Source of the DNA: Escherichia coli | Lineage (GTDB): Bacteria; Pseudomonadota; Gammaproteobacteria; Enterobacterales; Enterobacteriaceae | DNA: 64,000 nucleotides | Assembly (NCBI RefSeq): GCF_001677475.2 | Contig: NZ_CP015229.1 | Reading direction: 5' to 3' (one strand) | Part shown: positions 3,837-38,409 of the stretch, piece after piece | Layout of the letters: the number at the start of each line of letters is the position of its first letter | Position numbering within the stretch: the stretch's first letter is position 1 | Translations under genes and position numbers: made by a program | The notes under the pieces: model-generated | Seen by the model: the letters and a program-made list of their open reading frames with translations, nothing else | Told to the model about the DNA's origin: nothing | The model's database searches: none

Positions 3837-5219
3837 CTAAAGACTGGCTTTCCAGAGTTCAACACGGTTTCTACCTCGTCTTTTGGCGATATACAGAGCT
3901 TCATCGGCTATTTGAATGAGGCGCTCATAGTCAGGATGACCATTAAACATGGCGGCACCGATGGAAAGTGAGAGGGCAATATCCTCGCCGTTTGCGGCTT
4001 TCAGTTTGGTTTTCTCCACCCGACTGCGAATACGTTCTGCGGTACGTAACGTTTCGTTTTCCGAAGCTTCAGTCAAAACAATGATAAATTCATCGCCCCC
4101 GTAGCGGAAAACATAATCACTACTGCGGACGTTGTCATAAAAGGCCTGAGAGACTTTACGCAGAATTTCATCGCCAGTGTTATGGCCCCACGTATCGTTG
4201 ATCTCTTTGAATTTATCAACGTCAATAATCAGCACTGACAGCGGTGTACCGGTCCGGTTGGCATGGGCAATTTCGCGTTTGAAAATAGTCGGCAGGAAAC
4301 GGCGGTTAAGTAATTTCGTCAGTACATCCATACCGACTTCGTGGCGCGATACTTCTTCAAACAATTCACGCAGCAAGGTAATAATTTGCGATACGGTATT
4401 TCTTATCTGTAATAAAAATTTCACCCGCAGACTTCTGTTATTCAAATTCCTGGTGTTACGCATGGTTTGATTGAAAATACCGTCGAAATCCTGAATCAGA
4501 CGGGAGATATGGCCCACTTCGGCAATGCCGCTAAAATAATGTCGACCTTTATGGTTAAACCACAGGCCAAAATCAGCCTGGCTTAAAGGCAAACTACTGC
4601 CTAAATCAGAATCCAGCAGGACTTTATAGATAATATCTATTTCCCATGAAAGTAATGAGGCTATTTGCCGTTCTTTTTCTTCTTCGGCATTTTCCAGTAA
4701 CGAGAAGATACGATAGTTTTCATCTTCTTTTGAGGCACTACTGTCACTAAAGGTAAACGCGCGGGTCATCACTTCCATAGCGATATCAATACTGTTAATA
4801 GAGAAATGGTAGACCTGAAGTTTTTCTGCGGCGGAATAATCCGAAGAGAAGATGACCGGATAGAGGATTTTTTTCAGCACCCGAAACCCCATCTCGACAA
4901 TTTCTACCGGAATTCCTATGCGGGCATGCACTTCCGCGACGGTATGCTGGATTTGTATTAGCCTTTCGACATCGTCAACCTGGGCAGAAAGCACGTTAAT
5001 AATCCAGCGTTCCATCGCACTTTTCAACTGCCGCTCAACTTGTTCATTACTCAAGAATTCTTCGGCATGCGGGTCGATACGGACAATTCGGTAAAACTCA
5101 ATACTCAGATAATGGGCATGCGCAACGGCAATTTCCGCGGCTTTAGCACGAATGAGCGGATCTGCTTGTTCGACAAGCCCGGTCCACTCATCTTTCATTC
5201 TTTTAAAATACATCTCCAT
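3837..5219 (-). CDS. dosC: Globin-coupled diguanylate cyclase
   Basis: 460-aa ORF MEMYFKRMKDEWTGLVEQ...; GGDEF motif (YGGDEF) near the C-terminus; directly upstream of dosP (dosCP operon). Confidence 0.9.
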   Translation of the reverse strand: MEMYFKRMKDEWTGLVEQADPLIRAKAAEIAVAHAHYLSIEFYRIVRIDPHAEEFLSNEQVERQLKSAMERWIINVLSAQVDDVERLIQIQHTVAEVHARIGIPVEIVEMGFRVLKKILYPVIFSSDYSAAEKLQVYHFSINSIDIAMEVMTRAFTFSDSSASKEDENYRIFSLLENAEEEKERQIASLLSWEIDIIYKVLLDSDLGSSLPLSQADFGLWFNHKGRHYFSGIAEVGHISRLIQDFDGIFNQTMRNTRNLNNRSLRVKFLLQIRNTVSQIITLLRELFEEVSRHEVGMDVLTKLLNRRFLPTIFKREIAHANRTGTPLSVLIIDVDKFKEINDTWGHNTGDEILRKVSQAFYDNVRSSDYVFRYGGDEFIIVLTEASENETLRTAERIRSRVEKTKLKAANGEDIALSLSIGAAMFNGHPDYERLIQIADEALYIAKRRGRNRVELWKASL

Positions 5220-30714: not shown

Positions 30715-31278
30715 TTATAGATATTGAACTTTGAAGGTCGCATCTGCGTTTGCAGTACCAGCTACTGACTGCCCGAGAGCAATATAACGAGCCTGGAATG
30801 GCAGTATATTCGTGCCATCAATCAAGTCAGTTTTAGCGCTAAAAGTGGTACCATCAAGTATTAATACCTCCCCCGTACGGTCCAAAATTTGAATACCAAC
30901 ATTTTGGGCAGAGCCTGCCGCTGAACTCTGCAGCGCTAACGTGTCGTCATTACTGGTGACAGTAGTACCCAGGAATGCAACAGCTGCATTACTGGAAACA
31001 TTGGTATCACAATCATTCAGCTTGATATTGAAGCCAACGGCGGAGCTGAGGTCACCCGCTTTAGCCAGACGAGAAGAACGGACCTGACCCAGCTCAACCG
31101 TTTGGTTCATTGATTCTGAATCAATCGCACAAGCGGCATTTACCACTTCACCTTTAAAATGAATAACACCGCCATTAACAGTGGTCGTTACTGATTCATC
31201 ACCCTCGGCTGCGCTTACCGCAGCAGACGACATCGCCAACACAGAAACGACAATCATACCGACATGTTTGAGTTTCAT
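30715..31278 (-). CDS. Major fimbrial subunit (FimA-like)
   Basis: ORF 30715..31326 trimmed to [23 protein letters not shown]... (187 aa), preceded by GGAG; first gene of the operon. Confidence 0.8.
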
Positions 31279-31711
31279 AATTCTCCAAAATCTATATTTA
31301 AGTAGCTGAATAAAGAGAGTTAACAATTAAGTCATTCTGTTATTGCTTATAAAACAAGAATCATTCTTGATTGGTTGTTGCCCTGAGAATATAGTTTCCA
31401 GGGTTATTACATTTCACGAAGAACGATAATATCTTTAAATCACAAGGACACCTAATCACAACAAGTTTATTGCTGCACTTGTTGGAGAGAGTATTTGCAA
31501 AAACATTTTATGGCGCTAAATAACATGACGATTTCATTATGCATGTTATTTATAAACCGTGACTAAACAGAATATTATTGCGGACAAGGGAAGTGTCAGG
31601 AAAGGTCAAGAGATACTAATGGTTTATATGGCTATAAATCATTAGTTATGGTTAATGTTTGCCTGGTGTAACTAACACGGAATTGCTCTAAACAGATAAG
31701 TGCAGGGTTTA

Positions 31712-32062
31712 TTAAAGCTGACCGACAGACTTTCTTAACCTGGTAATATCTCTCTTAGGTGACTCTCCAAACATCCGCGAATATTCCCGACTGAAATGGG
31801 ATAAGCTTTCGTAACCGACAGCATAGGCTGCAGTGGTGACATCGTAATGTTCATTCAGCATCGGTCGCCTGGCTTCATTGAGGCGTAGCCATTTCTGATA
31901 CCGGAGTGGACTCATTCCCGCAAGCTGTCTGAAGTGTTGATGGAAAGAGGGGGGTTCATTTGCACGCGGTTTGCCAGCCTGACTCTTCAACGCAGGGAAG
32001 ATGCGGCAAACGGCAAACCTGCATACCAGCCAGCCTATATCCGGTATGCACAGGCTAATCAT
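31712..32062 (-). pseudogene. yneL: AraC-family regulator fragment (HTH domain only)
   Basis: 116-aa ORF carrying only an AraC-type HTH (…LSHFSREYSRMFGESPKRD…) with no sensing domain; corresponds to the yneL remnant that flanks dif in K-12. Confidence 0.6.
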
Positions 32063-32141
32063 GAAAGAGGAGAGGCTTTATGTTCTTGAACCCTGAAGTA
32101 ATAACGACGACCGGAAAATCGCTTCGCATCACTCAAACTCA

Positions 32142-32169
32142 ATTTAACATAATATACATTATGCGCACT
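32142..32169. other. dif-like site, left junction (attL): host-like XerD arm, phage-like XerC arm
   Basis: ATTTAACATAA-TATACA-TTATGCGCACT; 27 of 28 identical to the reverse complement of E. coli dif (GGTGCGCATAATGTATATTATGTTAAAT, recalled); the single mismatch is the outermost base of the XerC arm. Confidence 0.85.
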
Positions 32170-32181
32170 AAGGTGCGCATA
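32160..32181 (+). repeat. 9-bp perfect inverted repeat of the XerC-binding arm
   Basis: TATGCGCAC-TAAG-GTGCGCATA; the left half is the XerC arm of attL, the right half an inverted copy; overlaps a 10-bp palindrome CGCATATGCG (32176..32185). Confidence 0.8.
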
Positions 32182-32202
32182 TGCGTATTCTGGAGGTGTG
32201 TC

Positions 32203-33066
32203 ATGGCTTGTACTCGTCCTTTGAACGCGTACCAAATGCCATCGGGGAAGATTTTTTTCACGCCGTCACGTGGCGCTAAATTCATTCAGTTGCCCTGTGG
32301 TCAGTGCATCGGTTGCCGTCTTGCTCATTCTCGTGACTGGGCGACCCGCTGCGTTCATGAAGCCCACATGCACGATCACAATTGTTTTATCACTCTGACT
32401 TATTCGCCTGAGAATTTACCTGAAGGCGGTACTCTCGTTCGTAAACATTTCACCGATTTTATGAAGCGTTTGCGTAAGGAATTAGATAAGGATGATGTGA
32501 AAATTCGTTATTTTGGCTGTGGTGAATATGGCTCTAAATTAGAGCGACCGCATTATCATGCGATTATTTTTGGTTATGATTTTCCGGATAAGACACTTTA
32601 TAAAGCGGGAAGATTTAATTTATTTAATTCCCCGCTTCTTTCGAGATGTTGGAATCTTGGTTGGGCTGTTATTGCTGGTTTTAGTTTTGAGTCGGCTGCT
32701 TATGTGGCGCGATACTGTGTTAAAAAAATCAACGGTTTCCGTGCAGATGAGCATTATGGACATCGCCTACCCGAGTTTTCGGCTATGAGTAATCGCCCAG
32801 GTATTGGGTATGATTTTTTTATGACCTATTACGAGGATATTGTTAATGCAGATGCGTGTATTGGTCGTGGCGGTCGTCAGATAAAACCGCCCCGCTATTA
32901 TGACAAGTTATTATCAGGCTGTGATTTGGAAAAGTTGCAGCAGAATAAAGAAAAGCGCCAGTTAAATGCCCGTGTATTAGACCCGTGGCGTTTGCAGGAT
33001 TTGGATAAGTTTAATCTGGTTAAATTCCAGCGAATGATGAGGAAATTAGAAGATGGCTCACTCTGA
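32203..33066 (+). CDS. Replication initiation protein (VP4, rolling-circle HUH endonuclease)
   Basis: Track ORF 32080..33066 trimmed to MACTRPLNAYQ… (287 aa) with GGAGG 6 nt upstream. Rolling-circle motifs: FITLTY, HYHAIIF (HUH), AAYVARYCVKK (catalytic Tyr pair), plus CGQCIGC. Confidence 0.9.
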   Translation: MACTRPLNAYQMPSGKIFFTPSRGAKFIQLPCGQCIGCRLAHSRDWATRCVHEAHMHDHNCFITLTYSPENLPEGGTLVRKHFTDFMKRLRKELDKDDVKIRYFGCGEYGSKLERPHYHAIIFGYDFPDKTLYKAGRFNLFNSPLLSRCWNLGWAVIAGFSFESAAYVARYCVKKINGFRADEHYGHRLPEFSAMSNRPGIGYDFFMTYYEDIVNADACIGRGGRQIKPPRYYDKLLSGCDLEKLQQNKEKRQLNARVLDPWRLQDLDKFNLVKFQRMMRKLEDGSL

Positions 33067-33322
33067 TGCAGTTTATGTAATTCATGACAAGCTGATTGCG
33101 GCTGATGTTTTTATGTTTATGGCCCAGCATGATGGTATTGCGAAAGGCAATTTGCACGCGTTCTGTAACCGTATGCAGCGCACTGACTTTGTGCTGTACC
33201 GTGTGACGGCTTATGACTTTGAAGACCAGCAGCTCGTCCCCGTGGACATTGACCGCGTTTATATTTGCACCGCTTTCCCTGCCATGCTGGAGAATGCCCA
33301 AGATGAAATCCTTGAAGCGTAA
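33053..33322 (+). CDS. Small phage protein, VP5-like
   Basis: 89-aa ORF overlapping the VP4 3' end and the VP3 start; assigned by size and position in the gokushovirus gene order, not by motif. Confidence 0.6.
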   Translation: MAHSDAVYVIHDKLIAADVFMFMAQHDGIAKGNLHAFCNRMQRTDFVLYRVTAYDFEDQQLVPVDIDRVYICTAFPAMLENAQDEILEA

Positions 33323-33815
33323 GTTCCATACCCGCTATGACCCGCCGCCGTCGCCCGGCATCGAGTTCAAAGAACCCACGATGACCCAGCAGCATTTCCG
33401 CGATGAGTGCGACATCAACAAGATTGTTGAGCGTGCGATAAGAACGGGAGATACGACAGTCTTTACCAGTGCTCAACGTGCTGATTTCTACGATGCATCT
33501 TCGATTACTGACTACGTGGACGCAATGGCTTTAATTGACGACGTTAACGACGACTTTAACAGCCTGCCGTCCACGATTCGCTCGATGTTTGGTAATAACG
33601 TTAAGCAGTACGTTGAGTGGATGAGTAATCCCGCGAACTGGAATAAAGCCCGTGAGCTTGGATTGTTGAGCGGCGGAGAGGAGTCGGCGACCGAACGCGC
33701 CAGCGTTCGCGAGTCGAGTCCTGCTCCGGCGTCCCCGCGGGAGCGTGAGCGGACTTCGGAGAGTTCCCCGAAGGGGGAGTCGGAGAAGTCTGCGAATAAT
33801 GATGCAGGCTCATGA
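33303..33815 (+). CDS. Internal scaffolding protein, VP3-like
   Basis: ORF 33213..33815; likely start MKSLKRKFHTRYDPPPSPGIEF… (33303, or 33294); acidic Ser/Glu-rich C-terminus. Assigned by position and size. Confidence 0.6.
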   Translation: MKSLKRKFHTRYDPPPSPGIEFKEPTMTQQHFRDECDINKIVERAIRTGDTTVFTSAQRADFYDASSITDYVDAMALIDDVNDDFNSLPSTIRSMFGNNVKQYVEWMSNPANWNKARELGLLSGGEESATERASVRESSPAPASPRERERTSESSPKGESEKSANNDAGS

Positions 33816-33855
33816 GCTGCATGAAAAAAACCTGAAGACGGCTCCGGCCCTTCAG

Positions 33856-33892
33856 CCTGGCACAGTGGCCCTCTTGATGTAACTGTGCCAGG
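33856..33892 (+). repeat. 11-bp perfect stem-loop in the VP3-VP1 intergenic region
   Basis: cctggcacagt-(15 nt)-actgtgccagg. Confidence 0.8.
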
Positions 33893-33904
33893 TGACACCG
33901 AAAC

Positions 33905-33932
33905 TTACAGGCGGCTCCCACGAAGCCTGTAA
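33905..33932 (+). repeat. 8-bp stem-loop in the VP3-VP1 intergenic region
   Basis: ttacaggc-(12 nt)-gcctgtaa. Confidence 0.75.
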
Positions 33933-33992
33933 AAAGGTGTCAGTTTATACAGTAGTTTGTGTAGTATTTAAACAATTCCCTGAGGGGGGTTT

Positions 33993-35705
33993 ATGAGTAA
34001 ATTCGGTCGTAAAGTACCTAGTAATGCAAAAAGTCAGCATAATTTTTCAGTAATCCCGAGTGCCAATATTCAGCGTTCGGTCTTTAACCGCAGCTCTGGT
34101 TATAAAACCACTTTTGACGCTGGTTATTTGATTCCCGTGTTTCTGGATGAGGCTTTGCCGGGTGATACATTCCACCTGAAAACGTCCATACTGGCGCGTT
34201 TATCCACGCCAGTGGTGCCGTTTATGGATAACCTGCGACTGGACATCCAGTATTTTTCCGTGCCCTACCGTCTGGTCTGGGATAACTGGCAGAAATTCAA
34301 CGGTGAACAGAAGAATCCTGGCGATTCGACGGATTACCTTATTCCGCAGATTAAAGCCCCTGCTGGCGGCTTCCCTGTAGGCTCCCTTGCCGATTATTTT
34401 GGTGTTCCCACAGGTGTGGAGAATATCAGTGTAAGCGCCCTGCCGTTCCGCGCTTATAACCTGATTTATAACGAGTGGTATCGTGATGAAAACCTGATTA
34501 ATTCCGCCCCGCTTCCGCTTGGCGATGAGGAAGAAACAGGCCTCGCCAATTTCCCGCTGCGTAAGCGTGCCAAGCGTCACGATTACTTCACAAGTGCTCT
34601 GCCGTGGCCTCAGAAGGGTGAAGGCGTTGAGATTGGTTTAGGCGTTCCGCCGTCGTATACGCTCGATTTCCCGACCTATCCTGATGGTCTGCCGTTTGTT
34701 TCTTATGGCGTTGGTGTCGATGGAGATATGACTTCGCACAATCCGACTTATCTTGCCCGTAATAATGTTAACGAAGGCTCATCATACGAGGCCTATGGTA
34801 ATGCGGTTTATATGAGTGACGGCAGGAATCCCAGCAATCCGCTGGAATGGCCTCCTATGTCGCCCTCCACTGGACGTATTGATGTTATTGGTGGTTTTAG
34901 CAGAAACCAGCCTCCGGTTACGTTAAATAAGCAAGGTGGTGAAGTTGTCGATAATCTGACAATTAACTCGCTGCGTCAGGCGTTCCAGCTTCAGCGGCTG
35001 CTTGAGCGCGATGCTCGCGGTGGTACTCGCTATATTGAGATTATCCGCTCCCACTTTGGCGTTATTTCGCCTGATGCCCGTGTACAGCGTCCCGAGTATC
35101 TCGGCTCTGGTTCATTCGACATAAATATTAATCCTGTTCTTCAAAACTCCGCGACGACCGACGCAAGTCCGCAAGGCAACCTCGCGGCCTATGGTGTCTC
35201 CGGTGGTGTTAACCGTGGATTTTCTCATTCTTTTGTGGAGCACTGTTTTGTTATTGGCCTTGTTAGCGTTCGTGCTGACCTGACCTACCAGCAAGGCATC
35301 CCGCGCATGTTCTCCCGCCAGACCCGCTTTGATTTCTACTGGCCTGCACTGGCTCACCTGGGCGAACAGGCTATCCTTAACAAGGAGATTTACGCGCAAG
35401 GCAACGACAAGGATGATGAAGTATTTGGCTACCAGGAACGTTACGCGGAGTACCGCTACCGACCGTCTCAGATTACTGGTAAATTGCGTTCTACCGACCC
35501 GCAATCCCTCGATGTGTGGCATTTAGCCCAGCGGTTCGACTCTCTGCCCGCACTGAATCAGGAGTTTATCGAGGAGAATCCACCGATGAAGCGCGTCCTC
35601 GCCGTACAGGACGAGCCTCAGTTCATCATGGATGCGTTCTTCGACCTGAAGTGTGTGCGGCCTATGCCTGTTTACTCAGTACCAGGTCTTATCGATCATT
35701 TCTAA
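33993..35705 (+). CDS. Major capsid protein (VP1, Microviridae F-protein family)
   Basis: 570-aa ORF MSKFGRKVPSNAKSQHNFSVIPSANIQRSVFNRSSGYKTTFDAGYLIPVFLDEALPGDTF…, closely resembling the conserved N-terminal block of gokushovirus VP1 (recalled Chlamydia-phage pattern …IQRS.F.RS.G.KTTFDAGYLIP…PGDTF…); RBS GAGGGGGG. Confidence 0.9.
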   Translation: MSKFGRKVPSNAKSQHNFSVIPSANIQRSVFNRSSGYKTTFDAGYLIPVFLDEALPGDTFHLKTSILARLSTPVVPFMDNLRLDIQYFSVPYRLVWDNWQKFNGEQKNPGDSTDYLIPQIKAPAGGFPVGSLADYFGVPTGVENISVSALPFRAYNLIYNEWYRDENLINSAPLPLGDEEETGLANFPLRKRAKRHDYFTSALPWPQKGEGVEIGLGVPPSYTLDFPTYPDGLPFVSYGVGVDGDMTSHNPTYLARNNVNEGSSYEAYGNAVYMSDGRNPSNPLEWPPMSPSTGRIDVIGGFSRNQPPVTLNKQGGEVVDNLTINSLRQAFQLQRLLERDARGGTRYIEIIRSHFGVISPDARVQRPEYLGSGSFDININPVLQNSATTDASPQGNLAAYGVSGGVNRGFSHSFVEHCFVIGLVSVRADLTYQQGIPRMFSRQTRFDFYWPALAHLGEQAILNKEIYAQGNDKDDEVFGYQERYAEYRYRPSQITGKLRSTDPQSLDVWHLAQRFDSLPALNQEFIEENPPMKRVLAVQDEPQFIMDAFFDLKCVRPMPVYSVPGLIDHF

Positions 35706-35722
35706 GTTACATTGTCACTTTT

Positions 35723-35745
35723 GGCCTCTGCGGAGGCCTTTTTTT
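35723..35745 (+). terminator. Intrinsic terminator/attenuator after the capsid gene
   Basis: ggcctc-tgcg-gaggcc followed by TTTTTTT. Confidence 0.7.
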
Positions 35746-35759
35746 CATGAGGTGAAATT

Positions 35760-36542
35760 ATGGGCTTTTTATCATCTGCCATTGGTGCCGCTGGTTCTAT
35801 TGCCGGCTCCCTGCTTGGTGCGAACTCTGCGAAGGATTCAGCTAACCGTGCCAATAAGTTAACGATGGATTTGGCCAAAAACGGCATCCAGTACCGTGTG
35901 CAGGATTTACGGAAAGCTGGCCTTAACCCCATTCTGGCCGTTACTGGTTCCGGTGGTCTTGGTTCCGTCAGTTCGTCAGGTATTCAGGCCGCCCAGCCTG
36001 CCGATTTTTCTGGTGTGGTTAATTCTGCGGTCAGCGTATTTGACGCATTAACGAAGCGTCAGCAGCAGGAAGTCGCTAAGGAAGGCATCATGTCCCAGAT
36101 TGCGTTACAACGTAACCAGATTGCGAATAGCGCGGCTGATGTGAAGCTCAAAGAGGCTCAGGCTGCGCAAGCCTTATCTTCCATTTCTACTGGTAATGCC
36201 CAGACTAATTTGATTAATCAGCAGGCTTTGACCGAGGCTTCCCGCCGTGCCAATATTGAAGCACAGACGGGCCTTAGTTCTGCGCAGCGGATTAGAACAC
36301 AGTATCAAACTGTACAGGACAAGGTTTTGGCTGATTATTTGAATACACCGATTGGAGCTGAAAGTGCACGTGTCAATATGGATGCTTCTCGCGGTGGTAT
36401 CGTTGGCGGCGTTAATACTTTTCTGCGTTCTTTGCAACGTGATTACCCGTCTAACTCGAACTCTGCGAAGAAAGTAAACAAGGGGGGAACCTTCCCCCCT
36501 TCACAGTTCCAACAGCAATTGATTAATAACTATCGGAGGTAA
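35760..36542 (+). CDS. Minor capsid / DNA pilot protein (VP2-like)
   Basis: 260-aa ORF with Gly/Ala/Ser-rich N-terminus (MGFLSSAIGAAGSIAGSLLGANSA…) and Gln/Ala-rich predicted coiled region; RBS GAGGTG; position after VP1. Confidence 0.7.
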   Translation: MGFLSSAIGAAGSIAGSLLGANSAKDSANRANKLTMDLAKNGIQYRVQDLRKAGLNPILAVTGSGGLGSVSSSGIQAAQPADFSGVVNSAVSVFDALTKRQQQEVAKEGIMSQIALQRNQIANSAADVKLKEAQAAQALSSISTGNAQTNLINQQALTEASRRANIEAQTGLSSAQRIRTQYQTVQDKVLADYLNTPIGAESARVNMDASRGGIVGGVNTFLRSLQRDYPSNSNSAKKVNKGGTFPPSQFQQQLINNYRR

Positions 36543-36543
36543 T

Positions 36544-36663
36544 ATGGCTCGTTCTCGCCGTCGTATGTCCAAGCGTTCTTCCCGTCGTTCGTTCCGTAAG
36601 TACGCAAAGACGCATAAACGTAACTTTAAAGCCCGCTCTATGCGTGGTGGAATTCGTCTTTGA
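36544..36663 (+). CDS. Small basic DNA-binding protein (VP8 / J-like), absent from the ORF track
   Basis: ATG at 36544, stop TGA 36661..36663; translation MARSRRRMSKRSSRRSFRKYAKTHKRNFKARSMRGGIRL (39 aa, roughly 40% Arg/Lys). Confidence 0.7.
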   Translation: MARSRRRMSKRSSRRSFRKYAKTHKRNFKARSMRGGIRL

Positions 36664-36693
36664 TTGACAAAGTTGATCGTAACGATCTATGAT
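36664..36693 (+). promoter_or_regulatory. Putative sigma70 promoter at the prophage right end
   Basis: TTGACA (36664..36669), 18-bp spacer, TATGAT (36688..36693); the spacer contains GATCGTAACGATC with two GATC sites. Pattern match only. Confidence 0.35.
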
Positions 36694-36716
36694 AATTATC
36701 GTAAGTCGTTGTTTTT

Positions 36717-36744
36717 GTTAAACTAAATATACATTATGCGCACC
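36717..36744. other. dif-like site, right junction (attR): phage-like degenerate XerD arm, host-like XerC arm
   Basis: GTTAAACTAAA-TATACA-TTATGCGCACC; XerD arm 7 of 11, central region 6 of 6, XerC arm 11 of 11 versus dif. Confidence 0.8.
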
Positions 36745-36820
36745 AACATAAACCAAGGGAGAATCCAGTCGTTGGCGGTCATGATTGTCCTGCTCATTAA
36801 CAACGGCCAAACCCCATATC

Positions 36821-38143
36821 TTACTTAATACCGTATTCTCGGCTTAACCGACGGTGCAACCTCAACACATTGGTTTCAACTGCCGTCACCACGTTCTTCG
36901 GAAAATCTGTCGGTAATGAAGTCTTCACGTTATCCAGTGCTGCCGGAATCATTCTGGCAAAGTCACTCAGGATTTCATGCATCTGCACTTCCGGAAATTT
37001 CAGCACCTTTGCTGTCGCCAGAAAATGTCGCGGATAAATTTTATCGATTGCCGTTTTTTTGCCTTTGGATGAGTTAAGCCCCATTGCCAGTTTGAGATCG
37101 CTAATGTGTATTCCTGCGCCACCCAATACCGGAAATGCTGAAATGATGTCGTAAAATGGCGTGAGTCGATAACTGCCGCCAGCCTGAATAAATACGGAGA
37201 AGTTTTTTGCATGGCCATCCGTTGCGCCAATCAACCACTGGAACACCTGAAACTTCATAAAATCATAGCGATCTTTCAGCGCCTCGCTGGACCCCATCAA
37301 AAAAGCCATGATCCGCGCGATACCTGGGCCTCCATCTGATTCATATTTCACCGATGAAGGTAAACCGAATGTCTGACACATATCCTCCTGTGGCAAGCGA
37401 AGTAAAACCGTTCGCTCAGCATTCCAACGCCTGTCAAAACGTTCGACCGCTAACGCACGCACATTTCCCGCTTTAATGATTTCTGCGTCCGGCACATTCA
37501 ACCCAAGTTCTTTCGCCAGCAGCAGACAGTAATACTCATTATCAACGCTTTGGCTGAGATCGAGCGTCGCATTGGGCTGCCTGATTTCGCCAATCGGTAA
37601 TTTAATGATGTGTGTCGTCGGCGTTATTCCTTTCGGAATGCACCAGTCATTGCCTATTCTGAGCAGCGCTGTCTTCTCCTGCGCGCCAGCAACCGAGATG
37701 CGAAAGTCATTTTCTTCTCTAATCATGCCTAGAGGGATATCTGCTTTATAAGCCGTTAATACTTCTTCAAGCCTGGCTTCAGTGAGCTGCTCCCATGCCA
37801 TTATCGGGCGCGTTATGGTTTCATTTTCGGGTAATAACGTTACGGCACCAACGCTGTCTCGCCCTATTTCTGACAATAAATCAAACGGTTGTCTGGATTT
37901 AGCATGATAACGTTTAACGATCCGGTCACGTACAATCGGGCTATCGGGTAGCAGGTTATCGAAGAAGTTAAATACGGCATCAGAGGTGATATTCCCCCTC
38001 TGCAATGGCAGCGAAAGTGACAACGGTCTGGCATAACGGTTAGCTAACCACTCCGGTGCATACTTAAAGGTGTGCGCGCCATTGGCTAACTTCGTTAACT
38101 CGCCTACCCGCTGGTTGTTCATCCAAGTGACAAGTTTAGGCAT
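36821..38143 (-). CDS. hipA: Ser/Thr kinase toxin HipA
   Basis: ORF 36821..38200 trimmed to MPKLVTWMNNQRVGELTKLANGAHTFKYAPEWL… (440 aa); start overlaps the hipB stop by 1 nt. Confidence 0.92.
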   Translation of the reverse strand: MPKLVTWMNNQRVGELTKLANGAHTFKYAPEWLANRYARPLSLSLPLQRGNITSDAVFNFFDNLLPDSPIVRDRIVKRYHAKSRQPFDLLSEIGRDSVGAVTLLPENETITRPIMAWEQLTEARLEEVLTAYKADIPLGMIREENDFRISVAGAQEKTALLRIGNDWCIPKGITPTTHIIKLPIGEIRQPNATLDLSQSVDNEYYCLLLAKELGLNVPDAEIIKAGNVRALAVERFDRRWNAERTVLLRLPQEDMCQTFGLPSSVKYESDGGPGIARIMAFLMGSSEALKDRYDFMKFQVFQWLIGATDGHAKNFSVFIQAGGSYRLTPFYDIISAFPVLGGAGIHISDLKLAMGLNSSKGKKTAIDKIYPRHFLATAKVLKFPEVQMHEILSDFARMIPAALDNVKTSLPTDFPKNVVTAVETNVLRLHRRLSREYGIK

Positions 38144-38409
38144 TACCACTCCAGATCTTGCTGTTCTGTTGATTCTGGCGAGGCATTTTTCGTGTCGCAT
38201 AGCGTCATTGAGAGTTCAAGCGACTGTAAAATCTTAAAAAATGTCGTGAGCGTGGTATTGTCAGGGTTGTTTTCGAAATTGGAAATTGTCGCCTGCTTAA
38301 TACCGATTTTTTTCGCCAGCTCGCTCTGCGTCCAGCCATTTTGCTGACGAACCAGTTTCATTGCATTCGCTAATTGCGTTGGGCTATAAATCTTCTGAAA
38401 GCTCATCAT
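38143..38409 (-). CDS. hipB: Antitoxin and HTH repressor HipB
   Basis: ORF 38143..38427 trimmed to MMSFQKIYSPTQLANAMKLVRQQNGWTQSELAKKIGIKQATISNFENN… (88 aa). Confidence 0.9.
   Translation of the reverse strand: MMSFQKIYSPTQLANAMKLVRQQNGWTQSELAKKIGIKQATISNFENNPDNTTLTTFFKILQSLELSMTLCDTKNASPESTEQQDLEW

Follow-up and report, generated by a model that had tools for sequence, protein, structure and literature searches.

Integration at dif appears to separate a promoter-like motif from the replication initiator gene of an enterogokushovirus

Introduction

The joining of an end promoter to a gene at the opposite end once an integrated element closes into a circle is an established principle, known from ICEclc, ICEKp1, ICEEc1 and Tn916 (PMC5812530, PMC13023037). 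Pcirc of ICEclc (PMC5812530) and the 3′-end promoter of ICEKp1 (PMC13023037) are constitutive, point outward in the integrated element, and become joined to a gene at the opposite end, across the attachment site, only once the element is circular. Both drive the integrase of their own element and favor re-integration. In Tn916, according to Celli and Trieu-Cuot 1998 as cited in PMC5812530, transfer-gene transcripts must cross the joined attachment site and expression occurs only after excision. Tn916, as portrayed there, is a conjugative transposon with its own Int and Xis and a tetracycline-regulated upstream promoter. The locus described here belongs instead to a six-gene ssDNA phage that has neither integrase nor repressor and relies on host XerCD at dif; its promoter activity is predicted, and the target would be a replication initiator.

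Enterogokushoviruses are the only cultivable model for the gokushoviruses, which are very abundant in the gut and the environment. Integration of Escherichia phage EC6098 requires XerC, XerD, and both arms of the phage dif motif, and excision and re-integration are ongoing continuously (PMC7062461). The phage encodes neither integrase nor repressor, and cultures carrying only the circular form release significantly more phage (PFU) than lysogens (PMC7062461). The founding paper, which comes without promoter or transcript mapping, left the lysogeny of a six-gene, repressor-less phage unexplained (PMC7062461). Our literature searches for transcript, promoter, or terminator mapping in gokushoviruses returned nothing relevant.

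The element shares a dif-like attP, the lack of an integrase, integration at dif, and retention of dif with the IMEX elements (CTXphi, VGJphi, and TLCphi types; EC6098, PMC7062461). CTXphi, unlike the element studied here, uses a repressor, RstR. To our knowledge, a promoter-uncoupling logic has not been described for IMEX elements. In mycobacteriophage integration-dependent immunity and in lambda sib retroregulation, the position of attP makes expression integration-dependent; those cases change a protein C-terminus or an mRNA 3′ end, whereas here a 5′ promoter would detach.

The H-A region of phiX174 holds a terminator (TH) and a promoter (PA) ahead of the rep gene A, and a further terminator follows the major capsid gene. 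The gokushovirus locus resembles it in having a last structural gene, a short spacer with a transcript-end structure and a putative promoter, and a gene for a rolling-circle initiator. In contrast to the gokushovirus, phiX174 has no attP and never integrates, and the gokushovirus spacer is an insertion.

We put at about even the prospect that positions 36664-36693 of the DNA analyzed here are a real PA-like promoter in phages with the type A spacer defined below, which would read via attP into VP4 in the circle and be detached by XerCD integration.

Results and Discussion

The prophage and its attachment sites

The window, the whole stretch of Escherichia coli DNA that was analyzed, is 64,000 nucleotides long. 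At its dif site lies a 4.6-kb element (32142-36744) that is an EC6098-type enterogokushovirus prophage, 92% identical to EC6098, the type enterogokushovirus. Related prophages occupy the same position in 6 of 5,426 complete E. coli genomes. The six genes all lie on the plus strand in the order VP4-VP5-VP3-VP1-VP2-VP8, flanked on the left by yneL/an AraC-like pseudogene (31712-32062, minus strand) and on the right by hipA. The features needed to follow the argument are these:

32142-32169: attL, a dif hybrid site with the host canonical XerD arm ATTTAACATAA, core TATACA, and XerC arm TTATGCGCACT
32203-33066, plus strand: VP4, the rolling-circle replication initiator (PF23343), with Shine-Dalgarno GGAGG at 32192-32196
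35723-35746, plus strand: intrinsic-terminator-like site after VP1, GGCCTC-tgcg-GAGGCC then TTTTTTTC
36544-36663, plus strand: VP8, a small basic DNA-binding protein and the last phage gene, stop codon TGA at 36661-36663
36717-36744: attR, with the degenerate phage XerD arm GTTAAACTAAA, core TATACA, and the canonical host XerC arm TTATGCGCACC
36821-38200, minus strand: host hipA, convergent with the prophage

The hallmarks of such a prophage are present (a dif-like attP and two flanking dif motifs at the host dif), and an integrase gene is absent. An empty E. coli site (L009) carries a single canonical dif with exactly the two flanks of the window, so the insertion was precise. The Shine-Dalgarno sequence and ATG of VP4 are kept across every lineage, and because GGAGG-N7-ATG is conserved even where there is no upstream ATG, we place the VP4 start at 32203 and not at 32161. 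The GenBank record of EC6098 (L001, 21-926) starts VP4 at the latter, an ATG within the dif XerC arm. No Rfam family matched 31500-37500 at E<=1.

The terminator-like hairpin at 35723-35746 is strong, with a run of seven T, and stands directly 3′ of the major capsid gene VP1. A strong terminator at this point fits a phiX-like transcription unit. The variable 3′ end of VP2 contains another hairpin, 9 bp and G+C-rich (AAGGGGGGAAGGTTCCCCCCTT, 36480-36501), which resembles a terminator when read on the minus strand and is not obviously present in EC6098; it could block read-through from hipBA into the prophage.

A promoter-like motif directly after VP8

36664-36693, plus strand: sigma-70-type promoter motif TTGACA-18-TATGAT, -35 at 36664-36669 and -10 at 36688-36693

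This motif starts one base past the VP8 stop and faces attR. It agrees with the consensus at 11 of 12 positions and is the best site of 31000-38000 in a consensus scan. Under a simple sigma-70 weight matrix, no other position on either strand of the window scores as high (14.9 bits; the runner-up has 13.5), and other sense-strand sites in the phage reach at most 10.6 bits. Random sequence of the phage's composition is expected to hold 0.023 sites this good per phage strand and about 0.0004 per 80-nt spacer. The transcription start is predicted at about 36699-36701. Counting against its reading as a promoter, the 18-bp spacer is suboptimal. In the integrated element the motif sits 24-51 nt inside attR and points outward, toward hipA.

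The circle junction

The circular EC6098 sequence holds the identical motif, then attP, then VP4; that genome was itself built from a prophage. Independent proof of the joined order comes from a free metagenome-assembled genome (L012), circular by a 127-nt terminal redundancy, which reads VP8, TTGACA-18-TACGAT, attP, hairpin, Shine-Dalgarno sequence, VP4. In both, the att junction is all that lies between motif and VP4. The hairpin has its counterpart in the window:

32160-32181, plus strand: hairpin TATGCGCAC-taag-GTGCGCATA in the VP4 leader, formed by the XerC arm and an inverted copy of it carried by the phage

When the window circle is reconstructed by joining within the shared dif core (e.g., 36733|32159), the -35 element starts 114 nt, and the -10 element ends 84 nt, before the VP4 ATG, and the predicted VP4 leader is about 78 nt long, attP included. 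The preliminary description of this DNA had reported a promoter just after VP8 facing the right att site, and the att sites themselves; sequence and consensus scan bear out the first, and the attL and attR sequences together with the empty site bear out the second. Its estimate that the promoter sits about 90 nt before VP4 in the circle was fair (84 nt), but its joining of 36744 to 32142 counts dif twice.

In the circular replicative form, transcription would thus start near 36700 and run through attP and the hairpin into VP4 and onward. Host XerCD would recombine attP with dif, and since attP lies between promoter and VP4, integration shifts the motif to the far right end of the prophage, facing hipA. 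Excision by XerCD would restore the promoter-attP-VP4 unit.

The integrated state

VP4 would be left in the lysogen behind yneL/dif DNA with no comparable promoter in the nearest 140 nt. The best sense-strand matches directly upstream of it (32063-32202) score 7.1-7.5 bits, which is ordinary background; all genes of the left flank lie on the minus strand; and a search for a hybrid promoter at attL found weak matches only. That integration puts the motif at the opposite prophage end from VP4, with host DNA before VP4, was stated in the preliminary description and agrees with the att sites and the empty site. It further suggested that in the circle the promoter could drive VP4 "and downstream genes"; uncoupling is certain for VP4 and not necessarily for the downstream genes, which possible internal sites in VP4 and VP2 might serve. 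Promoter-like sites within VP4 (about 32513 and about 32687) and VP2 (36228) recur at the same positions among relatives and might maintain expression of other genes, a point that counts against the uncoupling proposal.

The second-best promoter-like site of the window, TTGATT-17-TATAGT (31367-31395, plus strand, 13.5 bits), is situated in the fimbrial/yneL intergenic region 0.8 kb upstream and faces dif and VP4. No terminator-like site was found between it and VP4. It could read into VP4 in the lysogen, which again weighs against the proposed uncoupling, as does the phage still shed by EC6098 lysogen cultures (PMC7062461). The yield data for EC6098 and its lack of a repressor fit the uncoupling geometry (PMC7062461).

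From sequence we infer promoter activity, a role in transcribing VP4, and silencing upon integration. On this basis integration could switch VP4 off without a repressor, the "built-in silencing" of the preliminary description: with no VP4 there would be no rolling-circle replication, and the single-copy prophage is proposed to stay quiet for that reason. If true, this would be a minimal, protein-free lysogeny switch in which XerCD integration detaches a promoter and excision re-attaches it. It would extend the state-dependent promoter principle of ICEs to phages and to XerCD-exploiting (IMEX) elements, and would account for circular carriers shedding more phage than lysogens. If the motif is inactive, the finding shrinks to an ordinary consequence of where attP lies.

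Spacer types among relatives

About 50 enterogokushovirus loci were collected from E. coli genomes, NCBI and Logan assemblies, IMG/VR, and metagenomes. IMG/VR contributed three close relatives; its other 77 contigs are distant gokushoviruses, useful only for the abutment of VP8 and VP4 without dif and for the location of a universal hairpin (below). An exact-pattern scan for the VP4 start found none in genome contigs and four loci in metagenomes. The VP8-VP4 spacer proved modular, with these types:

Type A (window, EC6098), 26 loci: motif present, -35 and spacer up to the -10 invariant
Type B, 10 loci: both hexamers missing, dyad GATCG-N3-CGATC kept
Type C (L008 and the free genome mar4), 2 loci: almost no spacer
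Types D and E (VP4 78-83% identical), a few loci: both hexamers missing, dyad GATCG-N3-CGATC kept

The motif is restricted to type A (26 of the 43 loci with a readable spacer) and is absent from types B, C, D, E, and G. Within type A the -10 element is TACGAT in 15 loci, TATGAT in 10, and TATGGT in 1. The main polymorphism thus falls on position 3, the least critical of the -10, and the majority allele TACGAT matches at 4 of 6 positions and gives the motif 13.6 bits. An identical VP4 protein (P0121) occurs with type A and type B spacers (L095-L104), so the motif is not essential to the clade. The spacers of types B, D, and E offer at best weak sites, TTAAC(A)-16/18-TACATT with 9-11 bits, which take the dif core as -10; in types B and E (TTAACA-16/18-TACATT) they reach 10.6-10.8 bits.

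A further promoter-like site lies upstream of the spacer:

36228-36257, plus strand: VP2-internal promoter-like site TTGACC-18-AATATT, position conserved in all lineages

Its general form is TTGACN-17/18-(T/C)AATAT, scoring 13.4 bits in types C and D (TTGACN-17-TAATAT) and 10.6 bits in A, B, and E; a synonymous GCC/GCT or GGT codon accounts for the gap. Conservation of this site is confounded because it is coding sequence (Leu-Thr...Ala-Asn-Ile). A compensation model, in which phages with no spacer promoter carry a stronger VP2-internal site, agrees with types C and D but not with B and E, and was rejected.

In gokushoviruses that have no dif-like site, VP8 abuts or overlaps VP4; the two were therefore ancestrally co-transcribed, and the spacer with attP is an insertion. 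The halves of the spacer upstream and downstream of attP always travel together despite lying at opposite ends of the prophage. The spacer is a recombining module that presumably acts as one unit in the circle.

Sequence comparison makes it a robust conclusion that in every enterogokushovirus attP lies between VP4 and upstream phage transcription. Since it separates the two, integration always orphans VP4; the strong promoter-like motif is the type A version of this general attP-VP4 arrangement. An independent dif-bearing lineage (L066/L076) carries attP in the VP3-VP1 spacer, and the sequence ahead of it has no strong promoter. The position of attP is therefore not fixed across gokushoviruses and a promoter-attP-VP4 architecture is not a universal design; independent support sought in this lineage was not obtained. 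Its dif-like site (L066 50-77 and about 5008-5035; L076) has a canonical XerD arm and a degenerate XerC arm, in the opposite orientation.

Palindromes in and around the motif

Two palindromes overlap the motif:

36675-36687: dyad/hairpin GATCG-taa-CGATC inside the promoter spacer, with two GATC (Dam) sites
36680-36719, plus strand: 13-bp hairpin TAACGAT-c-TATGAT-aatt-ATCGTA-a-GTCGTTG then TTTTTGTT, stem 36680-36711

The inner 5′ arm of the second is the -10 hexamer itself. An unlikely, though not negligible, alternative is that this cluster is the selected feature, as a transcript-end structure, an attenuator, or a protein-binding dyad, with the promoter likeness a by-product and VP4 reached by read-through from further upstream, e.g., from the VP2-internal site. 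Integration would then still sever VP4, though not via this motif. Conservation speaks for such a reading, as the dyad, though variable in its loop, recurs in types A, B, D, and E and the hexamers do not, and with the majority -10 allele a perfect 16-bp palindrome arises, TACGATAATTATCGTA. As RNA, the hairpin with its T-run folds at -10.8 kcal/mol (z -2.2), and each of the three polymorphisms in the inner stem is a transition compatible with G.U pairing. Further points on the same side are long-range stems spanning attP in type B, formable only by read-through RNA or ssDNA; the lack of room for a spacer promoter in type C, which carries the stronger VP2-internal site; and the co-transcription expected where VP8 abuts VP4.

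The details of the hairpin, however, make it a poor terminator. In 5 of the 26 type A loci uncompensated changes disrupt its outer stem, and the T-run is usually TTTTC, on which grounds an intrinsic terminator at 36680-36719 was downgraded; the stem is A+U-rich, and an intrinsic-terminator scan made no call there. The -35 TTGACA stands outside the palindromes yet is invariant, and the chance expectation given above for a 14.9-bit site in an 80-nt spacer also goes against a by-product. Types B and E, moreover, have only the weak form of the VP2-internal site and weak spacer sites from which read-through could come. If the motif is indeed a promoter, a transcript begun near 36700 would escape the hairpin, its 5′ arm being absent, whereas one arriving from VP8 would contain it.

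The dyad stands out for its GATC content. Where 17.6 copies of the tetranucleotide would be expected in 32159-36733, the phage has 4, a four-fold depletion, and two of the four sites are those of the conserved dyad after VP8. Its retention suggests possible control by Dam/SeqA or a binding protein.

Other readings of the motif

A role on single-stranded DNA appears improbable. A promoter mimic embedded in a hairpin might prime the complementary strand on the incoming (+) strand, as the M13 minus origin and F Frpo do, or the region might hold another ssDNA signal. The packaged strand is the one given here, and this region, one of just two that are non-coding, has -35/-10-like hexamers in or next to hairpins. 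The hexamers are sense-oriented, however, and RNA made from them would be templated by the complementary strand and not by the incoming one; the -35 is outside any stable stem; type C phages, with a VP4 88-91% identical, do not have the element; and the universally conserved hairpin region is the VP3-VP1 spacer.

A function in the lysogen is similarly improbable. There the motif would serve as an outward promoter at attR antisense to the toxin gene hipA, or as one gated by Dam/SeqA through its two GATC sites, with an effect on host persistence or a link between phage expression and replication state. For it speak the orientation, which dif polarity dictates in all E. coli lysogens, and a GATC pair 9 bp apart that is retained in the promoter spacer of a phage otherwise poor in GATC. 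Against it, the same spacer also stands beside unrelated host flanks (L091, L094), so hipA cannot be a general target, and the GATC pair occurs as well in spacers that have no promoter. Neither strand holds a terminator-like fold between attR and hipA, so the motif, if active, would transcribe antisense into hipA in the lysogen.

attP stems and a candidate replication origin

The hairpin at 32160-32181 has a folding energy of -17.9 kcal/mol, compared with -8.3 when the flanks are shuffled (p=0.004). A stem brackets or includes attP in every enterogokushovirus lineage, with sequences that are lineage-specific and covary. The regions compared were 32160-32181 and 36705-36744 of the window and the junctions of L099, L008, L002, L119, L121, L122, and L123. 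The paired arms are:

Types A and D: TATGCGCAC / GTGCGCATA
Type C, L008: GGCACCT / AGGTGCC
Type C, free genome mar4: GGCGATTTT / AAAAGTCGCC
Type E, L121: ACGCCGT / ACGGCGT
Type E, L122: ACCTCCTTA / TAAGGAGGT
Enterobacter prophage, L123: ACCCCTC / GAGGGGT

Against shuffled flanks, 7 of 8 representatives give p<=0.011, with a combined p of about 1e-11. These stems are part of the VP4 leader; upon integration, their two arms end up apart in most lineages, one at attR and the other at attL. We tentatively extend the proposal to a lysogeny switch of topology only, in which attP between one strong promoter and the rep gene would leave the latter off when integrated and on when circular, the attP-bracketing stems would take part in control at the junction, and the orphaned promoter would run antisense to hipA; taken as a whole, this is doubtful.

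A different hairpin is the better candidate for the origin of replication:

33856-33892, plus strand: conserved hairpin in the VP3-VP1 spacer, loop ..CTTGATGTA(AC), then GTGACACC

Its loop may also be written ..CTTGATGTAAC, then GTGACACC. Among the 77 distant gokushovirus contigs, 47 have the motif, flanked by covarying stems; on the reverse strand it turns up in 6. The universal gokushovirus hairpin (L016-L057 and others) has the loop ..ACTTGATGTAAC, then CTGACACC(A). As the loop at 33856-33892 resembles CAACTTG/ATATTAATAAC, the phiX174 nick region, this hairpin is the likely (+)-strand origin. The palindromes of the promoter region are for this reason not regarded as the origin; an origin there was also rejected because the element is absent from type C despite 88-91% identity in VP4.

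Neighboring elements at dif

In one close relative (L010, VP4 93% identical), a 491-aa open reading frame (19-1494) lies directly upstream of VP4 in the same orientation, at the expected position of attL; judged by eye, its product looks like a DDE-type transposase. The dif-like site at the right end of this locus has the unusual core CCGCTT. In L113, L116-L118, L091, and L122, the DNA left of attL is not yneL but another element, which carries two tyrosine-recombinase genes and whose end, ...ACCACAGTAGGTG, lies beside dif, suggesting that tandem elements are stacked at dif in these loci.
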